The translations under genes and the position numbers were made by a program. 64,000 bases of DNA. Source: Chiloscyllium plagiosum. Taxonomy: Eukaryota. The notes under the pieces are model-generated. The model was not told where the DNA came from. It made no database searches and saw nothing but the letters and a program-made list of their open reading frames with translations. This document shows, piece by piece, positions 14,161 through 62,723 of the stretch. The stretch lies in contig NC_057719.1 of the NCBI RefSeq assembly GCF_004010195.1, forward strand, positions 41,920,139 through 41,984,138, written 5' to 3'. Numbering within the stretch: the stretch's first letter is position 1; every line of letters starts with the position of its first letter.

Positions 14161-14570
14161 ATATTTTGTGGGGTGAATTTGTTCTTGCAGAGTTACATTG
14201 TACTTTGCTCAAAAACTGCATGCATTCATGTAGAACTCTGAGCTCAAAAACTGCATGAATTTATGTAAAACTCCGTTATCTCATTTTTTAGATTAGAATC
14301 AATCTAAACATCATGGCATAGACAGAGAACACAGGGGGCTAACACCTTCAACATATTGTCTAGCTATCACCATTGTTAACAGCTAACCTGAGAATGCAAC
14401 TTTTTTAAAAAAGGTTTTGTGATTTACACATGAAAGAAGTGAAACTATCATGGTATTCTAACAGATGAAAGGCTTAACAGACAATCAATCTTTCAATGTA
14501 TAATTTCAGTTACATCACACTGTAAATTTTTGCTATAAATTCTGTGTGTTAGGATTGAGCCCTCCACTAC

Positions 14571-14605
14571 CACCTGATGAAGGAGCAATGCTCCGAAAGG
14601 TAGTG
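14571..14605 (+). ncRNA. Minimal type I hammerhead motif (family B)
   Basis: CAC-CTGATGA-A-GGAGC-AAT-GCTCC-GAAA-GGTA-GTG; helix I CAC/GTG; other copies read GCTA in place of GGTA. Confidence 0.75.
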
Positions 14606-15009
14606 TGCTTCCAATTAAACCTGTTGGACTATAACTTGGTGTTGTGTGATTTTTAACGCTGTAAACAAAGGTTCCCTTTTGGATGCCCACCAGCAAATAC
14701 AGCATGGTTTTCTTGTGCTTCCCACATGGGAGACCCTACCACCGGTTAACACCAATGTAGCCAGGCCGTCAGCTGGACACTTATTCCAATTAAAGGCCTC
14801 AAGTGACAAGGTAGTTTGAAGGCCATCCATAGGCCTTCCCATCATAGAATTGGCATAGAGACAGGAAAACTCTCAGGTTTAGCAAGGCCCACTGCTACCA
14901 ATTTCCTCTTAGAGGAGGACATAACATTCTGCTTATTGTTTCTCAGCATTTAATTCCAATTTGTTCTTCATTTGTAATTTGTTTTCAGTTTGATTGTAGT
15001 TTTGCTTAG

Positions 15010-18505: not shown

Positions 18506-18609
18506 CTATAAAAGACAATACGGAATCAATAGAGGAGCACTTCAGGATGCCACAATAAATGTGAAATAAACTCTGATTGAGTGCGTATGTGATAACACTG
18601 ACTCCTTAC

Positions 18610-18816
18610 ATAAAACTGTCCATCCTTGCTTTGACGCTGTTTAATTTCCTGGAAAAGTGCTTCACAAATCATGGGAACAAGACCTTTGTTTCCTCCATAT
18701 CCAGTCATCAAATAGCTCTTCCCTGATCCAGTCTGACCATAGGAAAAAATGGTTGCATTGTACCCATTCCAGGCATTTTCCAAGACAGCTCTTCCAAGTT
18801 CATTAAAGACATGCTC
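18610..18816 (-). CDS. KIF28: KIF28-like kinesin, exon 3 (EHVFNELGRAVLENAWNGYNATIFSYGQTGSGKSY...DGQFY)
   Basis: P-loop GQTGSGKS; acceptor tttaaag|GAG, donor TAT|GTAAGG; 207 nt, phase 0. AWxGYN resembles KIF28/KLP-6. Confidence 0.92.
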
Positions 18817-19059
18817 CTTTAAATGTTAACAATAAATTAATCCCTCCATAGTTCAAATTGTAGTACAATACTATAAATTATTATTATTTAGCCCAATCTA
18901 TGGTTGTATTACTTTTCCTTAAAATACTATAAAAGACCATTACATTTCTGATAATACTTTGTACTTAACTGCATATCAGCAGTTATAATCTTAATGCTAA
19001 AAACCAATTAATAGTTGCATTGCTATACCTTATTTCTCAGAAAAGATTGTCTGACTGAC

Positions 19060-19251
19060 CTGACTGATGTATCGGCTGTGAGGTCCATTAGGCAGGAAAA
19101 CTCCCTGGTCATTCTCAATATACCCATCAGTTGACCAGTAGCAATAATCAAAGGTAAAGGTTCTTTTGTTTTGGAGGTCTTTTGGATCCAGAATGGTACA
19201 ATTGTTGCCAGCCATTGAGATGATACATTTACTTCTCATTGCTTTTTCTCT
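19060..19251 (-). CDS. KIF28: KIF28-like kinesin, exon 2 (REKAMRSKCIISM...TFTFDYCYWSTDG...RYISQ)
   Basis: Acceptor ttttctaag|AGA, donor CAG|GTCAGT; 192 nt, phase 0; kinesin-3 FTFDYxYWS motif. Confidence 0.9.
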
Positions 19252-19939
19252 CTTAGAAAATCACGTGCAGGAATAAACAACACATACCGATTAATTTTAA
19301 GGCATTAGCACTGAAAATCCACACAATGTAATCTCGATTATACACATCCAATGCAGATCATTTGAAGAAACTGGGACGGCAGCTAAAATTCATAGGATAG
19401 GACAGTGAACATGTATCCCTATGTCATCCATGATCTACCTCCTTTTAGCGGAAGGTTTTCTATCCCTCCCACAAACTGTATGCAACCCTCAATTAACCTC
19501 TGAAACCAATCTTAATTTTTTTTTACTCACTCACAGAATGTGGGTGTCGATGGCTTGGCCAGCATTTATTACCCATCACTAGTTGCCTTGAGGTGGTGGT
19601 GGTAAGCTGTCTTTATGAACTGCTGCAGTCCATGTGCTGTAGGTCAACCTACAGTGCCATTTAGGGAGGGTAGTTTCAGGATTTTGATGCACAGAAGAAA
19701 TGGTGGTATATTTCCAATTCAGGATGGATGCCTTGGTGGGGAACTGGCAGGTGGTGTTCCCCATGTATCTGCTGCACTTGTCCTTCAAGGTAGAAGTTGT
19801 GGGTTTAGAAGGTGCTGCCTTAGGAGCCTTTTCTGTAATCCATCAATCAGATGATGCACTCTACTGCTACTGAGTGTTGTGAAGTGAGTGGATATTTGTG
19901 GATGTGGTGTCAATCAAAAAGGCTGATTTGTCCTGGATG

Positions 19940-20163
19940 GTCGAGAGTGTGGTGCTGGAAAAGCACAGCAGGTCAGACAACATCCGAGGAGCAGGAGAAT
20001 CGATGTTTCGGGTAAAAGCCCTTCATCAGGAATCGTCCTGATGAAGGGCTTTTGCCCAAAATGTCAATTTTCCTCTTCCACGGATGATGCCTGACTTGCT
20101 GTGCTTTTCCAGCACCACACTCTCGACTCTAATCTCCAGCATCTGCATTCCTCACTTTCGCCT
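19940..20163. mobile_element. Palindromic PLE terminal element (family A)
   Basis: Inverted arms around ...cttcatcagg aatcgt cctgatgaag...; both hammerhead cores carry point mutations; no clear TSD. Confidence 0.8.
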
Positions 20164-20546
20164 TGACTATTGTTTGAACTTTACCTGTCCAGGCAAGTGG
20201 AGAATATTTTATTACACTCCTTACTGTGGCTTGTAGAGAGTAAACAGGCTTTAAACAGGTAAGTTACTCACTTCAGGATTCTCACTCTCTAACCTGCTAT
20301 TGTAGCCATTTTATTTATATGAATGGTACAGTTCTAAAAAAATGGCAACCCCCCCCCTCCCCCACCCCCAGCATTTTGAGAGTGGGGGATTGCAATGATG
20401 GTAACATGATTAAATGTCAAACAACAATGTTTAAATTCTCTCTTGGAGATGGTCATTTGTGTGGTCATTTTTCAGCCTAAACTTGGATATTGTTCAGGTC
20501 TTACTCCATTTGGACCTGGATTGCTTCAGTATCACAAGGAATGCTG

Positions 20547-21678
20547 ATAGAATATAGAACATAGAACATTACAGCGCAGTACAGGTCCTTCGGCCCTCGA
20601 TGTTGCACCGCCATGTCATACTAATCTGAAGCCCATCCCACCTACACTGTTCCATGTACATCCATATGCCTGTCCAATGACGACTTAAATGCACTTAAAC
20701 TTGGTGAATCTATTACCATTGCAGGCAAAGCATTCCATACCCTTACTACTCTCTGAGTAAAGAAACTACCTCTGACATCTGTCTTATACCCATCTCACCC
20801 TTTCCAAAGCTTCCACATCCTTCTTATAATGCGGTGACCAGAACTGTACACAATACTCCAAGTGTGGCCGTACCAGAGCTTTGTACAGCTGCAGCATAAC
20901 CTCCTGGTTCTGGAACTCAATCCCTCTATTAATAAACGCCAAGACACTGTATGCCTTCTTAACAACCCCGTCAATCTGGGTAGAAACTTTCAGGGATATG
21001 TGTAAATGGGCACCAAGATCTCTCTGCTCATCTGCACTCCCAAGAATCTTACCATTAGCCCAGTACTTTGCATTCCGATTACTCATCCAAAGTGTATCAC
21101 CTCACACTTGTCCACGTTAAACTCCATTTGCCACCTCTCAGCCCAGCTCTGCATCCTAGCTATGTCTCTCTGCAACCTACTACATTCTTCGTCACTATCC
21201 ACAACTCCACTGACCTTAGTGTCGTCCGCAAATTTACTACCCCACCCTTCTAAGCCCTCATCCAGGCCATTTATAAAAATGACAAACAGCAGTGGACCCA
21301 ACATCAACCCTTGCAGTATGCCACTAGAAACTGGACTCCAAGATGAACCTGTTCCATCAACTACAACCCTCTGTTTTCTTTCAGCAAGCCAATTATTGAT
21401 CCAAACTGCTATGTCTCCCACAATCCCATTCCTCCGCATTTTGTATAATAGTCTACTGTGGGGAACCTTATCGAATGCCTTGCTGAAATCCATATACACC
21501 GCATCAACCGGTTTACTCTCATCTACCTGTTTGGTCACTTTGTCAAAAAACTCAATAAGATCCGCTAGGCACGACCTACCCTTCACAAAACCGTGCTGAC
21601 TGTCCCTGATCAGATTATTCATTTCTAGATGGTTATAAATCCTATCTCTTATAACTTTTTCCAACACTTTACCAACAA
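20547..21678 (-). mobile_element. CR1 LINE, RT to 3' end, with internal deletion near 20790
   Basis: ORF 21083-21724 QHGFVKGRSC...YMDFSKAFDKV...KFADDTK; RPHLEYCVQFWSP; (TTCTATG)n tail. Confidence 0.95.
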
Positions 21679-24600
21679 TATATGATGGTGCTGAAGATTG
21701 TGAAATCATCAGCAAACAACCCAATTCTGACCTTATGACAGAGGGATGGTCACTGATGAAGTAGCTGAAGATGATTGGGTCTAAGACATTCTCCTGAGGA
21801 GCACCTACAGGGATATCCTAGAGTGTAAATAACTGACCTCCAATATGACCATTTTCCTGTGTGATAGGTATGAATCCATGATAGGTGGAGGGTTTGCTCC
21901 CTGATTCCCATTGACTCTAGTTTTGCTTGGTCTCCTTGATATCACACTTGGTGAAGTTCAGCCTTGATGTCCAGGGCTGTCACTTTCGCTTTCAACTCTA
22001 GAATTCATCTCTTTTGTCCATGTTTGAACCAAGGTTGCAATCAGGTCAGGAGCTGAGTGGCCCAAGCAGAACCTAAACTGGGCATCACTGAGCAGGTTAT
22101 TGCTGAGCACTTTTGATGACACTTTCCATCACTTTACTGATGGTCGAGAGTTGACTGAAAAGGTGGTAATTAACCAGGTTGGATTTGTCTAATTTTGTCT
22201 ACAAGATCTGGAGCTTTTCCATATTATGGGGTAAATGCCATTGCATAGCTGCATTGGAACAGCTTGGCTAGGGTTGTCAAGTTCTGGAGTACACGTTTTC
22301 AGTGCTATTGCTGGAATATTGTCAGGACCTACAGCCTTTGCAATATCTAGTGCCTTCAGCCATTTCTTGATATCACCTGGAGTGAATTGGCCGAAGACTG
22401 GCATCTTTGATACTGGGGTCCTTTGGAGGAGGCTGAGATTGATCATCCATTTGTCACTTCTGGCCGAAGATTGCTGCAGTCGCTTCAGTCTTATCTTTTG
22501 TATTGATGTGTTGGCCACCCCCGTCATTGAAGATGGGATATTTTTGGAGCATCATTTGTGAAGTAAATTGTTTAATAGTCAACCACCATTCAGAATTGGA
22601 TATGGAGGAATGGCAGTTAGATCTGATCCATTGTTGGTGGAATCGCTTAGCTCTGAGAATCACTAGCTGCTTCTGCTGTTTGGTATGTAAGAAGCCTGTT
22701 TTGACACTACATTTTTACATATGCCTAGTGCTGCTTCTGGCATGCCCTTCTGCACACTTCGTCAGAACAGAGTTGATCCCTTGCTTGATGGTAACGGTTG
22801 AGTGAGGGATATGCCAGGCCATGAGGTTGCTGGTTGTGCTGGAGTACAACATGATGGAGGATATTCTCATTGTAAAGGTGGGGCTTCATCTCCACAAGGA
22901 CTGTGTAGTTTTGCTGATGCTGTCTCAGATTTTGTCTGCAGCTGTCAGATTGGTAAGGATGAAGTCACTTTTGCTGGGTTGCTTACCACCCGCACGAGTC
23001 TAGGAGCTTATCCTTTAGGACCTGACAAGCTCAATCTGTAGTACTGCTGCTGAGCTACTCTTGATGGTGGATTTTGAAATCCCCCACTCAGAGTCCATTT
23101 TGTGCCCTTGCCACTCTTAGTGCTTCCTTGAAGTGTTGTTCCGATTCATCAACTGAGGGAGGATGGTATATGGTAATCAGCAGGAGATTTCCTTGCCAGT
23201 GTTTAACCTGAAGCCATGAAACACCATGGGGTCCAGAATCAATATTGAGGACCCCTAGGACAACACCCTTTGGATTCTATACCACTGTGCCACCAACTCT
23301 GTTTGCTCTGTCTTCCAGTTGGACAGAACATATCCAGGGATAGGGATGGTGGTGTCTGGGAAATTGTCTGTAAGATATGATTCCATGAGGATGACTATGT
23401 CGCTGTTGTTTAACCTGTCTGTGAGACACCTCTTCCAATTTTGGCACTCGTCCCCAGATGCTAGTAAGGAGGACTTCGCAAGGTCAGCAAAACAATTTCT
23501 GCTGTGATCTTTTCCAGTGCCTAGGCCAATGTGCCAGGTAGTCTGTCTGGTTTAATCCTTTTTGAGACTTTGTCATGATTAGTACAACTGAATAGTGTGA
23601 TAAGGTCATTTCGGAGGCTGATTAAGACTCAATCAAATTGTTAAGGGTCTGCAGACACATATAGAGAAGATTAGGTAAGAGTGGCAGTTTCCTTCCCTAA
23701 AGGACATCAGTGAACCAGATAGATAGGTTTTCCCTGGCAATTGTTTCAAGGTCAGCATCAGACTTTTAATTCCAGATGCTTGTTGCATTCAAATTCCACC
23801 AAGTGTCATGGTAGGATTCAGAACTGAGTCCACAGAACATACCTGGGTTACTGGATGACTAATCTAGCGACAATACTACTACACCATTGTTTCCCCTTAA
23901 AAAAAAGACTTGGCTATTCTGCAGCAGTCTATTCCATTTGATGACTATGTACTAGGAGGTAGGCCACTAACTCACTTGATCCACCAGCCTCCAGCTCCAG
24001 ATGAACTGAAGAAGCAGGAACTCCTAGACTAAGGATCAGAGTAATCAGAATTCTTAACTTTATCCTTCTCTCATTCCCTCGATGACTTTTCCATTTTAAG
24101 CATTTAAATCTTTTTATTTTATGAGTCAACAAAAAGATCCATCCTTTACAATGCAGGCTCCAAAACCCCATAAAGAACAGAGATTTAACATTTACTGGAG
24201 TTGCAGCAAGAATTATCTCCCTACTGCAGGTTGTTGCTACCATTTAAAACATAATCGCTTCATTGAAACAAACCAGTAGATTAACATGCAGCTAACAGTC
24301 AAGAATGTTTTTTTTAAGTGCTCAGGAAACTTTGTTCTGTTTCAGTTTGGTGTTTGAAATGTGGATTTGCAGTCAAGCTTCTAAATTGTGTTTGTCTGTC
24401 ATATACAGCATAAACTCAAGCAGAAGATAATAATGAGACAATGTTTTATTCTGTAAACACAGCCATAATTTGCCCATGCACTTCCACAATTTTGACAATG
24501 AACTGAGCATGATTTTTTTATACATCACAGTAATTTTTTTCTTTTCAGATTCACGCTGAGTCGGTGATCATTAGGAATCACTTTCCAACTTTATGTTGTC

Positions 24601-29000: not shown

Positions 29001-29267
29001 TCTTCAAAGAGAAGGTACATTTTTTATTTAAACGCCCACAAAAAACGTAGGGAGTTCTTTCAACCTTCAAGAAGAAATGACTGCACTTTTGGTCATGCCA
29101 ATTTTTTTTATTCTGAGTATTCAGAATCAGAAGTGACAAGCTTTAAACAATTTCCTGAGGGCTTCTGAAGGTCAAGATATTTCAGGCTGTAGATCCTTAA
29201 AGACTGGACATTACCCAAAGGGTTGTGTCAAAACTTCCATCCTTCAGATTAGATTTCATTCTGTGCA

Positions 29268-29552
29268 GTGTGGAAACAGGCCCTTCAGCCCAGCAAGTCC
29301 ACACCGACCCTCCAAAGAGTAGCCCACCCAGACCCATTCCCCCTAACTAATGCACCTAACTCTATGGGCAATTTGGCATGACCAATTCACCTAACCTGCA
29401 CATCTTTGCACTGTGGGAGGTAACCGGAGCACACCCATGCAGACACAGGGAGAATGTGCAAACTCCACACAGACAGTCGCCCGAGGTTGGAATCGAACCC
29501 AGGTCCCTGGCATTGTGAGGCAGCAGTGCTAACCACTGAGCCACCGTGCCGC
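29268..29552 (-). mobile_element. HE1-type V-SINE
   Basis: Same head, core and tail as 1788-2076; B box GGTTCGATTCC. Confidence 0.88.
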
Positions 29553-29869
29553 CTAACCATACATAAAATAGGTCAAAGAAACACGCCAAACAATGGGAAT
29601 GTGATTACCTGCAAAGATATCCAAATTGCGCAGTGATCTCAGGTTTTATAAAGTCACAACATTGAATGGAGGCATGTTGAAGAAGAATAAAAGTGAGCTT
29701 AGGGAAATGAACAACATGCCAATTGTGCAGAGTGAACTCGATAGAACACATACAGATATGACAATGTGATGGGACACCAAGACAATGAATGACACTCTGA
29801 CAACACATCTGAAAATCAAGAATATTGGGAATCCAAATTGACATCTCCACAGGGTTGCACCATAACAAG

Positions 29870-30328: not shown

Positions 30329-31266
30329 GGTACACTCCTTGACCACATTTGTTAACAACAGTTGGTTCATCCTCCTAATTGAAACCCTGATCAGAAATCT
30401 GTCTGAAATACAGAGCTCGTCCTTAATGTACAGGAAGACAATGAAGTAGAGTGGCAACCTGAGTCTGACTGCCACCACATGGAAAATCTAATCTGAATTG
30501 TCCAACCTTCATCTGTGCTCAGATCATAAGTCTTCAATTCTGAAGAAAAAAATGTTTCTTATCCTGCTTTTGAATGGTATGGATAACATCTGGCAGTCTG
30601 AGAATTTGTAATTATTTACAAAGTAAATCTAAATGTAAAATAGCAACCAGTAAAAGTGACAATAAACCTGTCAAAAAGCCATATGGTTCCCCAACTGTTC
30701 TTTTAAGGAGGGCTGTTCTCCTGACTTGACTTGGCAAATATATGCCTCCAGCCACACATCAGTGTAATTTACTCTTATCTCTCTCAAAAGTAACTTTAAA
30801 TAGCTATATAGTTACGTCCAGGTCAACTAGATGTGGACAATCAATACTGATTATGCCAGTGACTGAAAATGTAGCAAGTTCCACTCCCACGAGTACTCTG
30901 CCACACTGCTCTCACCTTCACCCAGTGGAACATTGGGGCCTATGCAGCTGAGGTCTGGTAGTTCAAATTTATTGTGTCTCATGTTGTGAAGATTTGCTGC
31001 CCATCTAGGCAACTCACAACTCCTCAGATATTGTAACAGTTTATGCCCATAAACAGCAAGACCCAGACAATATTAAGCTGACATGTGGCAGTAGCATTTG
31101 CAACATTCAAATGCTAGGGAATGGCCATCATCGACAAGACAGAATCTAACCATTGCCCCTTGACATTCAATGGCATTATCATTGCTGAGTACCCTATTAT
31201 CAATGCTCCTGGATGTTAACATTGACTAGAAACTAGCCATATGAATACAGTGGCTGCAAGAGCAGG

Positions 31267-31640
31267 GATTTTTAAACATCCATTCATTGGGTGGACCAGC
31301 ATTATTTGCCCAGCCCTAATTGCCAAGGAGCAATTAAGAGTCAATCACATTGCTGTAGGTCTTACATCACATGTTGGCTAGACCAGGTAATGATGGCAAA
31401 TTTCCTTCACTGAAGTGTATTAGTGAATCAGGTGGGGTTTTTTTTCCCCTGACATTCAATAGTTGTATCATGGTCATCATTAGACTCTTATTTCTAGATT
31501 TCAATATTATCTATTTGAATTCTATATTATCAAATTCAAATTCCACCATCTGCTATGGTCGGATTCAAACCCAGGCCCCCTGGTCTGGGTCTCTGGATTA
31601 ATAGTCTTGCGATAATAACAGTAGGACTTCGTCTACCCCA
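31267..31640 (-). mobile_element. Bipartite tRNA-headed SINE (LINE 5' head joined to LINE 3' tail)
   Basis: B box GGTTTGAATCC (31571-31561); body matches 23896-23620; tail GGCAATTAGGGCTGGGCAAATAATGCTGG matches the LINE tail at 19550-19590. Confidence 0.75.
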
Positions 31641-31789
31641 AAGCTAGGAATCCTGCAGTGAGTAACTCAACTCCTAATTTGCCAAAGCCTGTTTAGTCTC
31701 TATAGGCCACAGTGACGAGTGTCATAGAACATTCCCTACCTGCCTGGATGAGTGCAGCTCCAACAACACTCAAGAAGCTTGACACCATT

Positions 31790-32079
31790 GGGAGACAGGC
31801 TGCCTACTTGCGGAACATTTCAGAGAACACCTCTGGAACACCCGGACCAACCAACCCAACCACCCTGAGGCTCAACACTTCAACTCCCCCTCCCACTCCA
31901 CCAAGGACATGCAGGTCCTTGGACTCCTCCATCGCCAGACCATAGCAACACGACGGTTGGAGGAAGATGCTTGACACACTTTCCTCATTCCTGAAGAAGG
32001 GCTCATGCCCGAAATGTCGATTCTCCTGCTCCTTGGATACTGCCTGACCTGCTGCGCTTTTCCAGCAACACATTTTCAG
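31790..32079 (+). mobile_element. Penelope family A fragment (GIY-YIG remnant, internal deletion, hammerhead 31991-32018)
   Basis: AEHFREHLWNTRTNQPNHPEAQHFNSPSHSTKDMQVLGL; short TSD caccatt. Confidence 0.85.
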
Positions 32080-33994
32080 CACCATTCAAGACAAAACAGC
32101 CAACTTAATTGGTGCCACTTCCACAAATATTCACTCCCTCCACCACCAATGCATACTGGCAGCAATGCTTCCATTGTTAAGATGTACTGCATAAATTCAC
32201 CAAGCTCATACGACAGCATCTTCTAAACCCAAAAACACTACCATCTTGAAAGAGATGGTATCAGATACATGGGAATACCACCACCTATGAGTTCCTCTCC
32301 AAGCCACTCAACATCCTGACTTCAAAACATATTGCCGTTCTTTTAGTGTCACTGGGTCAAAAGCCTGGAACTCCCTCCCCAAATGCCGGGTGGGGGTAGC
32401 TACACTAAATAGATTGCAGTGGGTCAAGAAGGCAGCTGGTCATCATCTTCTCAAGGGCACGTAAGGATGGGCAGTAAGTACAAGCCCAGACAGCAATGCC
32501 CACTTGCCATGAATGAATTTTAAAAATTCCTGCATCACTCCAGCTAAAATAGATGTGGTAGTGTGGATATTCTATAAAAGAATCAATATGCCTAGAAACA
32601 TGGGTGTAGTAATGTGCAATTCTGTTGCAATACAATAAGACGTATTTCCTGAATGTGGTTGTTTACATTGTTGCTTAAACAAAACCTCTTGAACTTCCAG
32701 ACAGGAATTTCTTTCTTCGTGTAACCATCACAAGGTGCTAAGAAATTAAAACCCAGTGGAAAGCTTGCACTCATTCAGTCCCCAAAATGAAGGTTGCTGA
32801 CAGCTGTGTACTCAAACCTTAATAAGCCACTATCGGCAGTAATCCTCAACACAGTGCTCAGCAGATCATGACCAGAATTACCATGTGCTCAGTCAAGGAA
32901 TAAATATGCACTTGATGTGCAGCTAATCCACAATTAGTCGTAAACAAACACTTCACATCTAAAGAAGTATTACAGTTTCAATACACAGCTAATTTAGCAA
33001 AGGAAATGTGAACGCTTCAGGAGATCAGGAATATGAATGAAGGCCTGTTTGACGTTTTATATTCTTTATGATTTGAGATCAACTGTCATTTCTCCTGTAT
33101 TAGATAGTGAGAGTAGGCAACAGTAAGACTTATGAATGCAAAATTTGCTCTTGAGGTCTGAAGGATATCAGAGGGTCAGTCAGTTGCATTACCTTCTTAC
33201 AAAGAGTTTCAGAGAATGTACAACACTTATATAGACTGCTCCATGTTCCATATAGTTTTTTAAATGTGAATGAAACTACCATTAGAAAACAATGTACTAA
33301 AGAATACAAACTGCACAGCAAACAAACCTAGCAGTTACAAAATAAGATTTCACTGGAGACAACGCAACCCCCATTGTAGGTTGATGCACCACTTCTTGTT
33401 AGTCGGTTGTGCATATCTGTGAAACAGGAAACTGAGAGGATCACTTAAGGAGTTGGTCACATTTTACGTTAGGAGCATACAAGCAGAAAGAGATAGGGTG
33501 ACCACCAAACAGTTGAAGAGAGCAAAGCAGGCAGTGGATGGTGCTTGCTCCATCCTGAATATTGGTGAGGGCAAGGGAGAGCAGCTAGAGCCCATTTGTA
33601 GCACCACGACTGACTTAACTCCTCAGGGCAGGAGGAAGAAGAATAGAAGAGCAGTAATGTTAGGGGATGCTGCAATAAATCATTTCTGACTCCAGGATGG
33701 TGTGTTGCCCTCTCTGACCCAGAGTCAGCATCCCATACAGTGGCAGGTAAACTGACGACGAGCATCAACCAAGCTTAGAATGCAGCATAATGTCAGAAAG
33801 ACAAAGTTAAGGGCACTCTACCTGAATGCACAAAGCATTCCTTGAAGGTCACCACACTTCAGGTTTGAAAGATTAAAAAGGTAGGATCTTCATGGTAATC
33901 TCAGGAATCAAACCTATGCTGTTGGTGTCATTCTGCATCATAAATCAACCACCACCAAATTGTGCTAATCAACCACTTAGGTATTATAGTAATT

Positions 33995-34197: not shown

Positions 34198-34346
34198 GGG
34201 TAACATCAATTTGCAAATAGACTGAGTAAACCTAATGAGCATAAGTGCGGTGATGAGTTTCTAAAGCGAACTGGGGATGGTTCTCCCCAGCTGTGTGTTA
34301 AGGAACTGACTGGAGAACAGGTCACTTTCTATCTAGTATTGTGTTA

Positions 34347-34652
34347 ATTATTAATCCAAGATTCAGAAAATGTTCTGAGGATCCAGGTTTGAATGCTACC
34401 ATGGCATATGGTAGAATTTGACTTCAATAAAAATCTGGAATGAAGAGTCTAATGACCATGAATCCATTGTTGATTGTTGGCCCTTCTGGTTCATTAATGC
34501 CCTTTAGGGAAGGAAACTTCTATCAATACCTGCTGTAGCCTACATGCAACTCCAAACCCACAGCAATGTGGCTGACTCTGGGAAATTAGTAATGGGCAAT
34601 AAATGCTGGCCTGGCCAAGAATGCTCTCATCTCATAAATACATAGAAAAAAA
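34347..34652 (+). mobile_element. Bipartite tRNA-headed SINE
   Basis: ggtttgaatgc B-like box; ctggttcattaatgccctttagggaaggaaa body; tail gggcaataaatgctggcc then A-run. Confidence 0.75.
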
Positions 34653-38499: not shown

Positions 38500-38798
38500 G
38501 AGCGACACGGTGCTTAGCACTGTTGTCTCACAGCACCAGGGACCTGGGTTCAATTCCTGCCTCAGGTGACTGTGTGGAGTCTGCACATTCTCCCTGTGTC
38601 TGCATGGGCTTCCTCCAGGTGCTCTGGGTTTCCTCCTACAGTCCAAAGATGTGCAGGTCAGGTAAATTGGCCATGCTAATTTGTCCATAGTGTTAGGTGC
38701 ATTAGTCAGAGGGAAATGGGTCTGGATGGATTACTTGTCAAAGGGTCAATGTGGACTTGGGCTGAAGGGCCTGTTTCCACACTGTAGGGAATCTAATC
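38500..38798 (+). mobile_element. HE1-type V-SINE
   Basis: GGTTCAATTCC B box, V core, tail ending aatctaatct. Confidence 0.85.
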
Positions 38799-40335: not shown

Positions 40336-43159
40336 TCCACTGTCCCAGCAACGGTAATCAGGTTATTGTTTATTTAATATGTATTGTTGTTTGAAATAAT
40401 AGCAATATATTTCCAAGTGAGAATAATACAGGGTTTGAATGTGGAGCTGGTGACATTCCTATGCAACTGCTGTGATTATTTTGGGTGTTAGAGATTACAG
40501 GTTTGGAGAATGCTGGGGAAGAAGCCTTAGCAAGTTGTTGGTGTGCATCTGGTCAATGGTACATGCTGCGCCAGAGGTAAAAGGCATGAATGTTAAGGAG
40601 TGCCGATCAAACATGTCGCCAAGTTCTTTGATTCACATAGTACTGAGTTTCTTGAAGATGGCTGAGTAAAACAATTGTTGAAACTGCACCAAAATCTGTC
40701 ACATTATATTACTTTTTAGAATTCAAACTGGCATTGCAGTGTGACATTTTCACGAATCTATGTGTGTGCACAAATGTACAAAGATTACAGGATTGGGAAA
40801 AGGTGCAATGTTTTCCAAGATCAAATATTTTTCTATTATTTATTGTTTGTGGGGAAGCCTGAAATCCAGCTGGTTCTACGGAATTAAAACTCAGCAAAAT
40901 GTCAAAGTTTTCAGGCTGATCAACAGTAACTTCTGACTACCAATTTAGTATCCAAAATTGTACTGAAAAGATGGCAAACAACGTTGTTCAAGTGCCAGTA
41001 ACTGTACTGTACAGATTTCCATATTCCAGTGTAAACAAAATGATGTAAAAGAATATCTGTGGAGAACCTCTTTCACAAGTAAACAACATCAGGCATAAAA
41101 TTTAATATGAATAATCTTTGACATTTCTCCTAATTAAGCTAATCAGTTAAGAAGTTTGTTTTTTTCATCTGCTGCCTGCTATAATTTTCTTTCATGTGTT
41201 CCAAAATCCTTTATATTTATTCAGTAGCACAGTCTAGTCCTTGTTATTCTTCAGTAATTTCAAAATTAAAATTAAAATGAACCATTAAGTTGAAGTTGTG
41301 CACAGCCATATGTCCCTGATTTCCTCTGCATTTTTTCCCAGTGCGTAGACGCGATGGGCTGAACGGCCTGCTTCCACACTGTAGGGATTCTTTGGTTCTC
41401 CGGTGACCACTTTCTGTAACTGTCAAATCTTCTTTATGAAGCTGTATCAGAAACACATGTCTTATTTCAAACCTGGTAACAACATGTCCACATGCTTTTC
41501 TTCTTAAATATCCTGTCCAATTAATCATTCCTTGTGTTCAGTTATTGAGCTTTTTTTCACTGGCATTGATTTAATGGTCATAATAGATACTATTAATTTA
41601 AATGACAGATGAAAAATTGTCATTAATATTGCTTTATTCATTTTTGTATTCTATTAAAATAAAACACATATAGATATTAAGGCCAGCTGGGTCAACCCGT
41701 TTCCAGCACTTTATGTGTCATATACATTAATCAAATCATTGTACAGTTAAATGAATGTGTTTTCTTTTTTTAAGGAGTAATATTAAATTAAGGAGTAAAT
41801 CTAAACGGCACCAAATTTGTAAATAAATAATAAGTAACAGAATGTACCTAATTGTAGCTATACATCCTGTTTAAAACGTATTACTATACTGTAATAGATT
41901 ATTTCCACCATTTCACAACAGTACTTTAAATATTTTGGTTCAGATTAATATCATTTATTTTGTCTACAGCACCAGCTTGTGGTGGATATTATAATTGCGT
42001 GTAAAGATTGAGTATTGTCCAGCAGGTTGACAACAGTACAAATGTTTTTCAGTGCACTGTGGTATTGAAGTCATCTGTGATCTGCATGTAAACAAGTATG
42101 CTTATTGAAACATAAATCTTTACTATTATTTGAAGAATCTAGGAATTGTTTACAAATACATTTCTCCCCTCATTTTGCTTTAATTTTATATAACACATAC
42201 TCTCTTAGTCCATTACTTTGTTCATGCATCTAATTCTTTGTAAATGTGAAGTCTCACTTTCAACCTACATTTTCAGAATCTTTTATTGGTATATGAATTT
42301 TGTTCTACCCATGAGATATTGTTTCGAAATGAATACAGAATAAGGCAGAATCACGTAAATGAAGAATCATTTTTCAAAGAAAGGCAAAGATAGAAGAACT
42401 CTGAATTACGATAATATCACCGATCATGACTAACCTCTATCTTCATCAAAATTAAGGGGGCATTTATATTCTACCATCAGCAAAGATACAGTCATTTCTG
42501 CTTTGTACAAAATCTCTGCAGTGTAAATTAAGAGTCAGGGCCTAACCCAGCACTAAACTGAAGCAGAACAAGACTGCCATCTTCTCTGGTAAATGCCTAG
42601 TTTTACCAGAGTTAAATCCAAAATGATGGCTTAAACTGTACAATAAGCAAAGCAGAGTGAGACTTGTTCCTCCTGGGAGTACCTCTCCCTGATGTAAATG
42701 TTCGACTGTGCCATAACCTTTGGTATAGGCTCCATTACAAATCAATGGTAGTTTCAATTGTACTTCAAATTTGCTACTGCTTTTACAATAGCAGCTATAT
42801 AGGAACATAGGAATGGAGTACTTTGTCCCTTGATTCTGTTCCACCATTCCATGAGATCTTTAATCAAATTCCATCCCTCTGTCTCAGTCTATATCCCTTA
42901 ATATTGAAGAGACCAAATGCATAGATCACTCAAATATTATGAACAATCACTGGAAATAATTAAAAAGACCAAATCTCCTCTATATGTGGATGTTTAGAAT
43001 ACAAGGCTAAATATAATACAATCTGCCATTATACATCCACTCCACCAACTTGTACACACCATGATTCAGCCCCTGACTAAAATACTGTGAGCATTTGGGC
43101 ACCTCACCTCAAGAAAGACACGTTGGTCTTAAAAGGAGTGCAATACTGACTTACTAACA

Positions 43160-48131: not shown

Positions 48132-48297
48132 GAGATGCCGGTGTTGGACTGGGGTGTACAAAGTTAAAAATCACACAACACCAGATTATAGTCCAACAAG
48201 TTTAATTGGAAGCACACCAGCTTTCAGAGCTCCGAAAGCTAGTGTGCTTCCAATTAAACGTGTTGGACTATAACCTGGTGTTGTGTGATTTTTAACT
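48132..48297. mobile_element. Palindromic PLE terminal element (family B)
   Basis: Inverted copies of the 14595-14657 terminus centred on helix II (ctttcagagctccgaaag); TSD aactctatt(g/c)aaatttg at 48115-48131 and 48294-48310. Confidence 0.85.
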
Positions 48298-48515
48298 CTA
48301 TTCAAATTTGTTTTTAATGTTCACTTTGGCCACTACGTTTCATCAATTTTATTGGTTTGATTAATGTGCCGAGGGCCTTACAAAGGTGCAGGTTGAGAGG
48401 TTGCCCATGAACCTTATCACCTATCCCTTAATTGCTGAGGTAGTGAGAAAGGGATGAGTATATCCCCATAGCCAAACCAAACAATTACTTGCCTTACCTG
48501 GCACATTCCTCAACA

Positions 48516-51334: not shown

Positions 51335-51622
51335 CTCAGTGGCTCAGTGATTAGCACTGTTGCCTCACAGCACCAGGATTCCATGTTCAATTCCAGCCTC
51401 GGACAACTGTCTGTGTAGAGTTTGTACATTCTTCCTGTGTCTGCGTGGGTTTCCTTCCACAGTCCAAAGATATGCAGGTCAGGTGAACTGGCCATGCTAA
51501 ATTACCCATAGTGTTAGGTGTAGTAGTCAGAGGGAAATGGGTCTGGGTGGGTTACTCTTCAGAGGGTTGGTGTGGACTGGTTGGGCTGAAGGGCCTGTTT
51601 CCACACTGTAGGGAATCTAATC
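51335..51622 (+). mobile_element. HE1-type V-SINE
   Basis: tggctcagtga A box, tgttcaattcc B box, core and tail. Confidence 0.85.
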
Positions 51623-62342: not shown

Positions 62343-62723
62343 TTTAGATTTAGAATCAGTCTAAACATCAGGTCATAGACAGAGAACACAGGGGGCTAAC
62401 ACCTTCAATAAGTTGTCTAGCTATCACCATTGTTAACAGCTAACCCGAGAATGCAACTTTTAAAAAAAGGGTTTTGTGATTTACACATGAAAGAAGTGAA
62501 ACTATCACTGTATTCTAACTGATGAAAGGCTTAACAGACAATCAATTCTTCAATGTATAATTTCAGTTACATCACACTGCAAATTTTTGCTATAAATTCT
62601 GTGTTACGATCGAGCCCTCCACAATCACCTGATGAAGGAGCGTCACTCCAAAAGCTAGTGTGCTTCCAATTAAACCTGTTGGACTATAACCTGGTGTTGT
62701 GTGATTTTTAACTTTGTACACCC
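62343..62723 (+). mobile_element. Penelope family B 3' terminal fragment (hammerhead GAAA mutated to AAAA)
   Basis: Close match to 14290-14657. Confidence 0.9.

Follow-up and report, generated by a model that had tools for sequence, protein, structure and literature searches.

Short interspersed elements (SINEs) are defined as products of RNA polymerase III (Pol III) that are non-coding, long interspersed elements (LINEs) as made by RNA polymerase II (Pol II) and coding. Where does a coding LINE stand that begins like a tRNA gene? The question is raised by a minus-strand copy of a Zenon LINE (CR1 group), decayed yet full-length, at 23896-19516 of a 64,000-nucleotide stretch of Chiloscyllium plagiosum DNA (NCBI RefSeq assembly GCF_004010195.1, contig NC_057719.1, positions 41,920,139 to 41,984,138 of the forward strand), hereafter the window. 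An earlier note, made from the sequence alone, had described a single-frame LINE with a Pol III-type promoter region and had called this unusual. The tRNA-like head is indeed unusual. The lack of a first open reading frame (ORF1) is not, having been published for all Zenon elements (PMC13343379), and the promoter function is what we infer from the head. Known already are the Zenon family, its lack of ORF1 and its consensus sequences; the paper that describes them makes no mention of the tRNA-like head on the coding form. At the level of sequence, comparison with published elements confirms this head as a real, family-wide feature of elasmobranch Zenon.

The head in elasmobranch Zenon elements

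Ten Zenon entries of Supplementary Table 2 of Stuart et al. 2026 (PMC13343379) were compared by eye over the first 400 letters of each. The supplement text amounted to 579,336 characters, with each sequence cell limited to 400 letters, and species were read from the abbreviations in the names, which gives five elasmobranch species, one of them a ray. All seven elasmobranch consensus sequences (CarCar_Zenon-1, RhiTyp_Zenon-1, ScyCan_Zenon-1, HypSab_Zenon-1 and SquAca_Zenon-1/2/3) start with the head and none of the three from hagfish and coelacanth does, the starts of these being unrelated to it. The order in the headed sequences is a short G-rich lead, A box, hairpin region and B box, then body and linker as in this copy; the two boxes, situated at the 5′ end, are spaced in a tRNA-like way. 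Each consensus begins some 5-10 nucleotides (nt) ahead of its A box, the place where a tRNA-type transcript starts. Two sequences, HypSab_Zenon-1 and SquAca_Zenon-3, reach endonuclease codons within the 400 letters. The exact B box GGTTCGAATCC occurs three times in the supplement and the body motif seven times, in every case in elasmobranch Zenons. Elsewhere, a 20-nt body motif gave a single locus in metagenomes, a chance match in a bacterial leucine operon, and none in viral contigs. By its 5′ sequence, which is colinear with all seven, the element of the window is a Zenon LINE. Moreover, it ends in nine A residues (19524-19516), a poly-A tail being unique to Zenon within the CR1 group (PMC13343379). 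For two families, whose consensus cells hold 3,288 and 3,293 characters, the longest genomic insertion given in the same paper is 3,299 nt, and full-length genomic Zenon copies therefore exist. The earlier note would have given up its reading for endonuclease-containing copies with another 5′ region or an ORF1; the separately built consensus sequences of the five elasmobranch species keep the head-to-linker run and leave no room for ORF1.

The endonuclease of this copy has 16 homologues, from whale shark and horn shark records, one of which (P0008) exceeds the Pfam cut-off. Three of the 16 protein matches, P0012, P0004 and P0010, are whale-shark gene models in which endonuclease peptide follows on head-body or linker peptide. 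P0012 runs from the linker into the endonuclease (E 6e-13 to 23531-23283), while P0004 and P0010 carry head-body peptide before the endonuclease peptide, their body matches being weak (E 0.06 and 0.21). When full-length relatives were sought by word index among proteins, the searches returned 0, 1 and 0 matches. P0008 and P0010, which model shark CWC25 and a HEAT-repeat protein, contain Zenon-derived peptide, either as exonised copies or as annotation errors.

Repeat depth was obtained from contigs of three organisms aligned at 80%. It amounts to thousands over the endonuclease, to 133-478 over the linker as against 6-26 in unique flank, and to up to 3e5 over the body; at the 5′ end it drops from 85-211 (bin 23864-23924) to 11-26 in the following bin and to 1-26 beyond in all three organisms. 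The dip over the linker is ascribed to local decay of this copy because a similar dip is found within the coding region (192-297 at 22522-22582), and linker depth is still about ten times that of the unique flank or more. In two of the organisms, single contigs continue out of the head into the flank seen here, and over about 506 nt they show 15 and 22 differences; this insertion is therefore older than their split.

The head and its junction in this copy

The A-box-like TGGTGTAGTAG (23886-23876) and the B-box-like AGTTCTGAATCC (23825-23814) lie on the minus strand exactly where the earlier note had put them. It had also remarked that the head does not end in a SINE tail here, and this holds: the head runs on to the endonuclease, unlike that of two short copies in the window, which do run into a tail. 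The strand VLLTSIWG, the first of the endonuclease, begins near 23474, some 420 nt past the 5′ end at 23896, in agreement with the ~400 nt and the N-terminus at ~23470 estimated before. Between these two points the longest stop-free stretch in any frame is 51 codons. The ~420 nt before the endonuclease offer no room for ORF1, as had been claimed, and this copy is without it. Once the nested CR1 and palindromic repeat are subtracted, the copy has 3,004 nt of its own DNA, matching the ~3.0 kb first given.

An endonuclease-then-reverse transcriptase (RT) order is seen, with the frame broken. The 3′ tail placed after the RT by the earlier note is present. The RT itself, too decayed for Pfam, in which none of four pieces matched, shows only in motifs picked out by eye and in a weak tblastn hit on the RT of the nested CR1 (E 0.013). 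The strong RVT_1 match in the span belongs mostly to the nested CR1. The tetranucleotide TTAA flanks the element on both sides (23900-23897 and 19515-19512) and is a weak candidate for a target duplication, as four base pairs can agree by chance.

Short elements with both ends of the LINE

Both short elements in the window, about 320-370 nt long, consist of the first ~280 nt of the LINE plus its tail, with the middle missing. After the body the sequence jumps to the last ~65 nt of the LINE, the tail identity being 76% and 84% over 37 nt. A-rich ends were found on both short copies as well as on a second Zenon fragment. Judged by their sequence, the short copies fit the definition of a SIDE, an internal-deletion derivative that holds only the 5′ and 3′ ends of a LINE. 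The copy at 31.6 kb resembles by eye the head variant of RhiTyp.

Other sources of the head were considered. SacSINE1 is an unlikely one because Deu motifs are absent, and SacSINE1/Deu was dropped as donor on this ground and because the tail is that of Zenon and not of the L2 type. Two Deu motifs, taken from the part of the PMC7245038 supplement that holds the published Deu alignment, gave 0 and 2 matches in the window at up to 3 mismatches, none of them in the head or the short copies. One one-mismatch match stands at 42849-42863 (minus strand), with no other Deu feature nearby by eye and a count within chance. The UCON3 and Meta bodies showed no likeness by eye. A second SINE family, which we take to be HE1-like, is present at 1775-2078, 29253-29553, 38510-38798 and 51339-51622, two of its copies having perfect A and B boxes.

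Start codon and translation

This copy has an ATG at 23609 in the endonuclease frame with one stop between. The corresponding consensus ATG at the body-linker border is followed by TAG two codons later in six of the seven sequences; it shares the frame of the endonuclease in CarCar, HypSab and ScyCan and does not in RhiTyp or SquAca-1 (by eye). About 50 nt farther along, another ATG begins a short frame that overlaps the endonuclease start in another phase. The absence of a plain in-frame start common to the headed consensus sequences hints at read-through, at frameshifting, at initiation on a codon other than AUG, or at errors in the consensus. In the published table the longest ORF2 has values of 739-747 as against roughly 930 codons available (PMC13343379), which fits the missing in-frame start.

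Transcription of the headed element

We lean, with modest confidence, towards the reading that the tRNA-like head of shark-and-ray Zenon is an internal Pol III promoter and that one RNA of about 3.3 kb is both message and insertion template. A fuller proposal is held more tentatively, with some doubt prevailing: Zenon might be an autonomous coding retrotransposon transcribed by Pol III end to end from a captured tRNA promoter, its uncapped RNA being translated by recoding or a cap-independent route, and its SINE would be the same element minus the middle. The head would have been gained once, in the elasmobranch ancestor after Zenon had entered the line, by template switch to, or fusion with, a tRNA-derived SINE; we infer a single gain because other vertebrate Zenons are without the head. 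With A and B boxes inside the RNA, each full-length insertion would carry its own promoter, and boxes travelling with each copy would explain their long retention. If the 5′ end of a LINE copy mirrors that of its RNA, the RNA likely starts at the head. The single endonuclease-RT protein would be read from this Pol III RNA, and the short elements would be internal-deletion forms that use the LINE protein via the shared tail. To reach the end of the element Pol III would need a sense strand free of T runs. No run of four T (T4) was seen by eye in the first 400 letters of any of the seven headed consensus sequences, and several were seen over the same length in the headless hagfish Zenon-1 and coelacanth Zenon. 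In this copy, the T4 at 23492-23489 is interrupted in at least half of the depth that other copies contribute, and one T run is absent from the second Zenon fragment. Pol III transcription of Zenon is plausible.

A number of observations weigh against it. The seven headed sequences share one origin and count as one event, and the T-run reading of the consensus covers the first 400 letters, which another 2.9 kb follows. This copy holds 4 runs of at least T4 in 3,004 nt against 6.5 expected from shuffles, which is not significant (p 0.17), and in three of four CR1 controls the count is likewise at or below expectation. The B box is imperfect in four of the seven headed consensus sequences. The box pair of this copy is picked up only when the setting is lax enough for 34 pairs to turn up in the window and 29.6 on average in 20 shuffles, and taken alone its boxes are not above chance; as a positive control, two heads of another SINE family match the A and B boxes with no mismatch. 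The parent tRNA was not identified: a loop-plus-B-box pattern led to 10 phage loci, five of them with mixed tRNA calls. In about 2% of one RNA run, 171 reads were found, none at least 99% identical to this copy and with no common start, and such reads are silent on polymerase, start site and cap. Translation of uncapped RNA needs a special route. Moreover, AATAAA stands 40 nt before the A tail, as in Pol II RNAs, and passages of Kojima 2018 (PMC5786205) assign LINE transcription to Pol II and deny SINEs any capacity to encode protein.

An alternative, which we find doubtful on balance, is that the head is family-wide and the long RNA is made by Pol II from a promoter in head or body, the boxes being kept either for short elements that go on swapping 5′ parts with the LINE or for some other benefit of TFIIIC binding. 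A capped RNA would solve translation, AATAAA precedes the tail, LINEs are generally Pol II-transcribed (passages of PMC5786205), T-run depletion is not significant in this copy, and the likeness of the 31.6 kb short copy to the RhiTyp head variant fits exchange or repeated derivation. What speaks for Pol III instead is that in five species the consensus begins at the point expected of a tRNA-type start and that the first 400 letters lack T4; moreover, the 5′ ends of headless Zenons are unrelated, so an older promoter seems to have been replaced.

The fixed 5′ end would also be accounted for if the head acted as RNA, a Pol II read-through transcript being cut at the tRNA-like fold (RNase P-type) much as ribozymes set the 5′ end in R2, RTE and Ingi. 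Ribozyme-defined 5′ ends are known in six LINE clades (passages of PMC5786205), and an anticodon-like stem and a second hairpin can be made out by eye in the consensus heads. Nevertheless, we consider such cleavage improbable: no acceptor stem is apparent there, the head of this copy folds worse than shuffles (z +1.74), ARAGORN found no tRNA anywhere in the window, and Rfam, at E<=10, matched neither this head nor the short copy at 31.6 kb to a tRNA. The most improbable account, largely refuted, is that a SINE happens to adjoin a headless LINE here, or that extension of the published consensus ran by mistake into an abundant SINE. To judge from the depth of the body relative to the linker, the short element is abundant, and the consensus sequences were produced by extending automatically and checking by hand (PMC13343379). 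Against this, the same junction recurs in the same register in five species sets built separately, in this copy and in the whale-shark gene models, and the linker, its dip being decay of this copy, stays well above the flank in depth.

If the head is a Pol III promoter, as we prefer to think, Zenon would be a rare protein-coding element copied by RNA polymerase III, and were this true end to end, the SINE/LINE boundary would be erased in shark-and-ray Zenon. With its tRNA-type head kept on the coding form across sharks and rays, Zenon offers a direct test of whether Pol III carries a 3.3 kb message and how this is translated. If the head is passive, the finding shrinks to an annotation note on a family published in 2026. 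Shark repeat annotation will split headed Zenon into a false SINE and a LINE.

Feature map and neighbourhood

Table 1. Zenon-related features of the window and the basis of each assignment
Feature	Coordinates	Strand	Basis
Decayed full-length elasmobranch Zenon LINE with two nested insertions	19516..23896	-	Sequence, contig depth, consensus comparison
tRNA-like head, element 5′ end at ~23896	23790..23896	-	Colinear by eye with 7 published Zenon consensus starts; depth drop
A-box-like motif, degraded in this copy	23876..23886	-	Motif scan; intact TRGC-N-TAGTGG form in consensus sequences
B-box-like motif, one substitution and one extra base here	23814..23825	-	Exact GGTTCGAATCC in 3/7 elasmobranch consensus sequences
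Body region, common to short elements, no Deu motif found	23615..23789	-	69-73% identity to short copies
LINE-specific linker	23475..23614	-	Contig depth 133-478; P0012 aligns from 23531 into endonuclease, E 6e-13
Apurinic/apyrimidinic (AP) endonuclease coding region, stops and frameshifts	22890..23474	-	Pfam Exo_endo_phos_2 E 0.0024 (below curated cut-off); 16 homologues
Linker and first RT part up to FADD motif, broken	21684..22889	-	Motifs by eye; weak tblastn to CR1 RT; no Pfam match
Nested 5′-truncated CR1 LINE, TTCTAT-type repeat end	20547..21683	-	RVT_1 E 5.7e-26; 64-71% to other window CR1 copies
Zenon coding region past RT active-site motif	20164..20546	-	76% to second Zenon fragment over 20281-20162
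Nested palindromic repeat, Penelope-type (label by resemblance)	19941..20163	.	Self-inverted match; about ten window copies
Zenon 3′ coding end and 3′ untranslated region; last ~65 nt common to short elements	19525..19940	-	AATAAA at 19570-19565
A9 tail	19516..19524	-	Sequence
Second, 5′-truncated Zenon fragment	31648..32525	+	Own Penelope-type insertion ~31790-32081
Short element: head, body and Zenon tail	31265..31635	-	69-73% head/body identity; tail match
Short element: head, body and Zenon tail	34335..34652	+	69-73% head/body identity; tail match

Old repeats abound in this animal DNA. On the strand of the element, and just downstream, lie exons of a kinesin motor gene (18526-19260, minus; Pfam Kinesin E 3e-20 at about 19260-18610), and the Zenon copy is probably in an intron upstream of them. 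In both Zenon copies of the window a Penelope-type insertion has its right end at one and the same point of Zenon, just ahead of a shared short motif (19941 and 32082). The two inserts differ in sequence, other copies of the repeat are without a common flank, and the shared point may reflect chance or a preferred site. A sister copy of the palindromic repeat has a GIY-YIG-like C-terminal frame by eye, with no Pfam match. A 380-nt repeat pair (14287-14666 and 62343-62721, 91% identity, with pieces at 48152-48299) is younger than most repeats here.

Comparison with known systems

The HE1 SINE and HER1 (CR1) pair of sharks and rays has in common with our case a tRNA-headed SINE that shares its tail with a CR1-group LINE (PMC3747384). 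The window family that we take to be HE1-like (29253-29553, for example) is a separate one and has no blastn match to the Zenon element. SacSINE1 and the DeuSINEs offer another tRNA-headed shark SINE (parts of PMC5499810); SacSINE1, compared here by description, has a Deu domain and an L2-type tail, whereas the present elements have no Deu motifs and a Zenon tail.

An autonomous LINE with a fixed tRNA head was not found described in the open literature, Repbase, Dfam and subscription journals lying outside that search, and the passages of the BovB and AviRTE papers at hand hold no precedent for it. SINE pieces have reportedly been found joined to BovB ends.

The closest match is with the elasmobranch Zenon LINEs themselves, which are placed with crustacean elements (PMC13343379). 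This copy agrees with them by eye in the first 400 nt, and also in the endonuclease-RT order, probably once a single frame, lack of ORF1, A tail and length (~3.0 vs 2.9-3.3 kb), differing only in its decay and two nested insertions. The head went unremarked there, the word 'tRNA' being absent from the text and searchable supplement of PMC13343379. As in the Persaeus SIDE of lepidopteran Zenon, the short element corresponds to the 5′ and 3′ ends of Zenon joined by internal deletion; unlike Persaeus of moths, described in parts of PMC6740152 as having no tRNA homology and no Pol III promoter, both long and short forms here carry A and B boxes. Bov-tA, SINE2-1_ACar, ManaSINE1 and the hagfish SINE2-1_EBu likewise have a tRNA head followed by 5′ and 3′ parts of a partner LINE (passages of PMC5786205, PMC4494074, PMC4844689 and PMC7245038). 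In these bipartite SINEs only the short form bears the head, and the partner LINEs belong to RTE or Vingi, whose coding members are not reported to bear it in the passages of PMC5786205, PMC4494074 and PMC4844689, whereas here the coding LINE bears the head and the clade is Zenon. To RTE and Vingi, clades in which a SINE body is the same as the 5′ region of the LINE, Zenon can be added.

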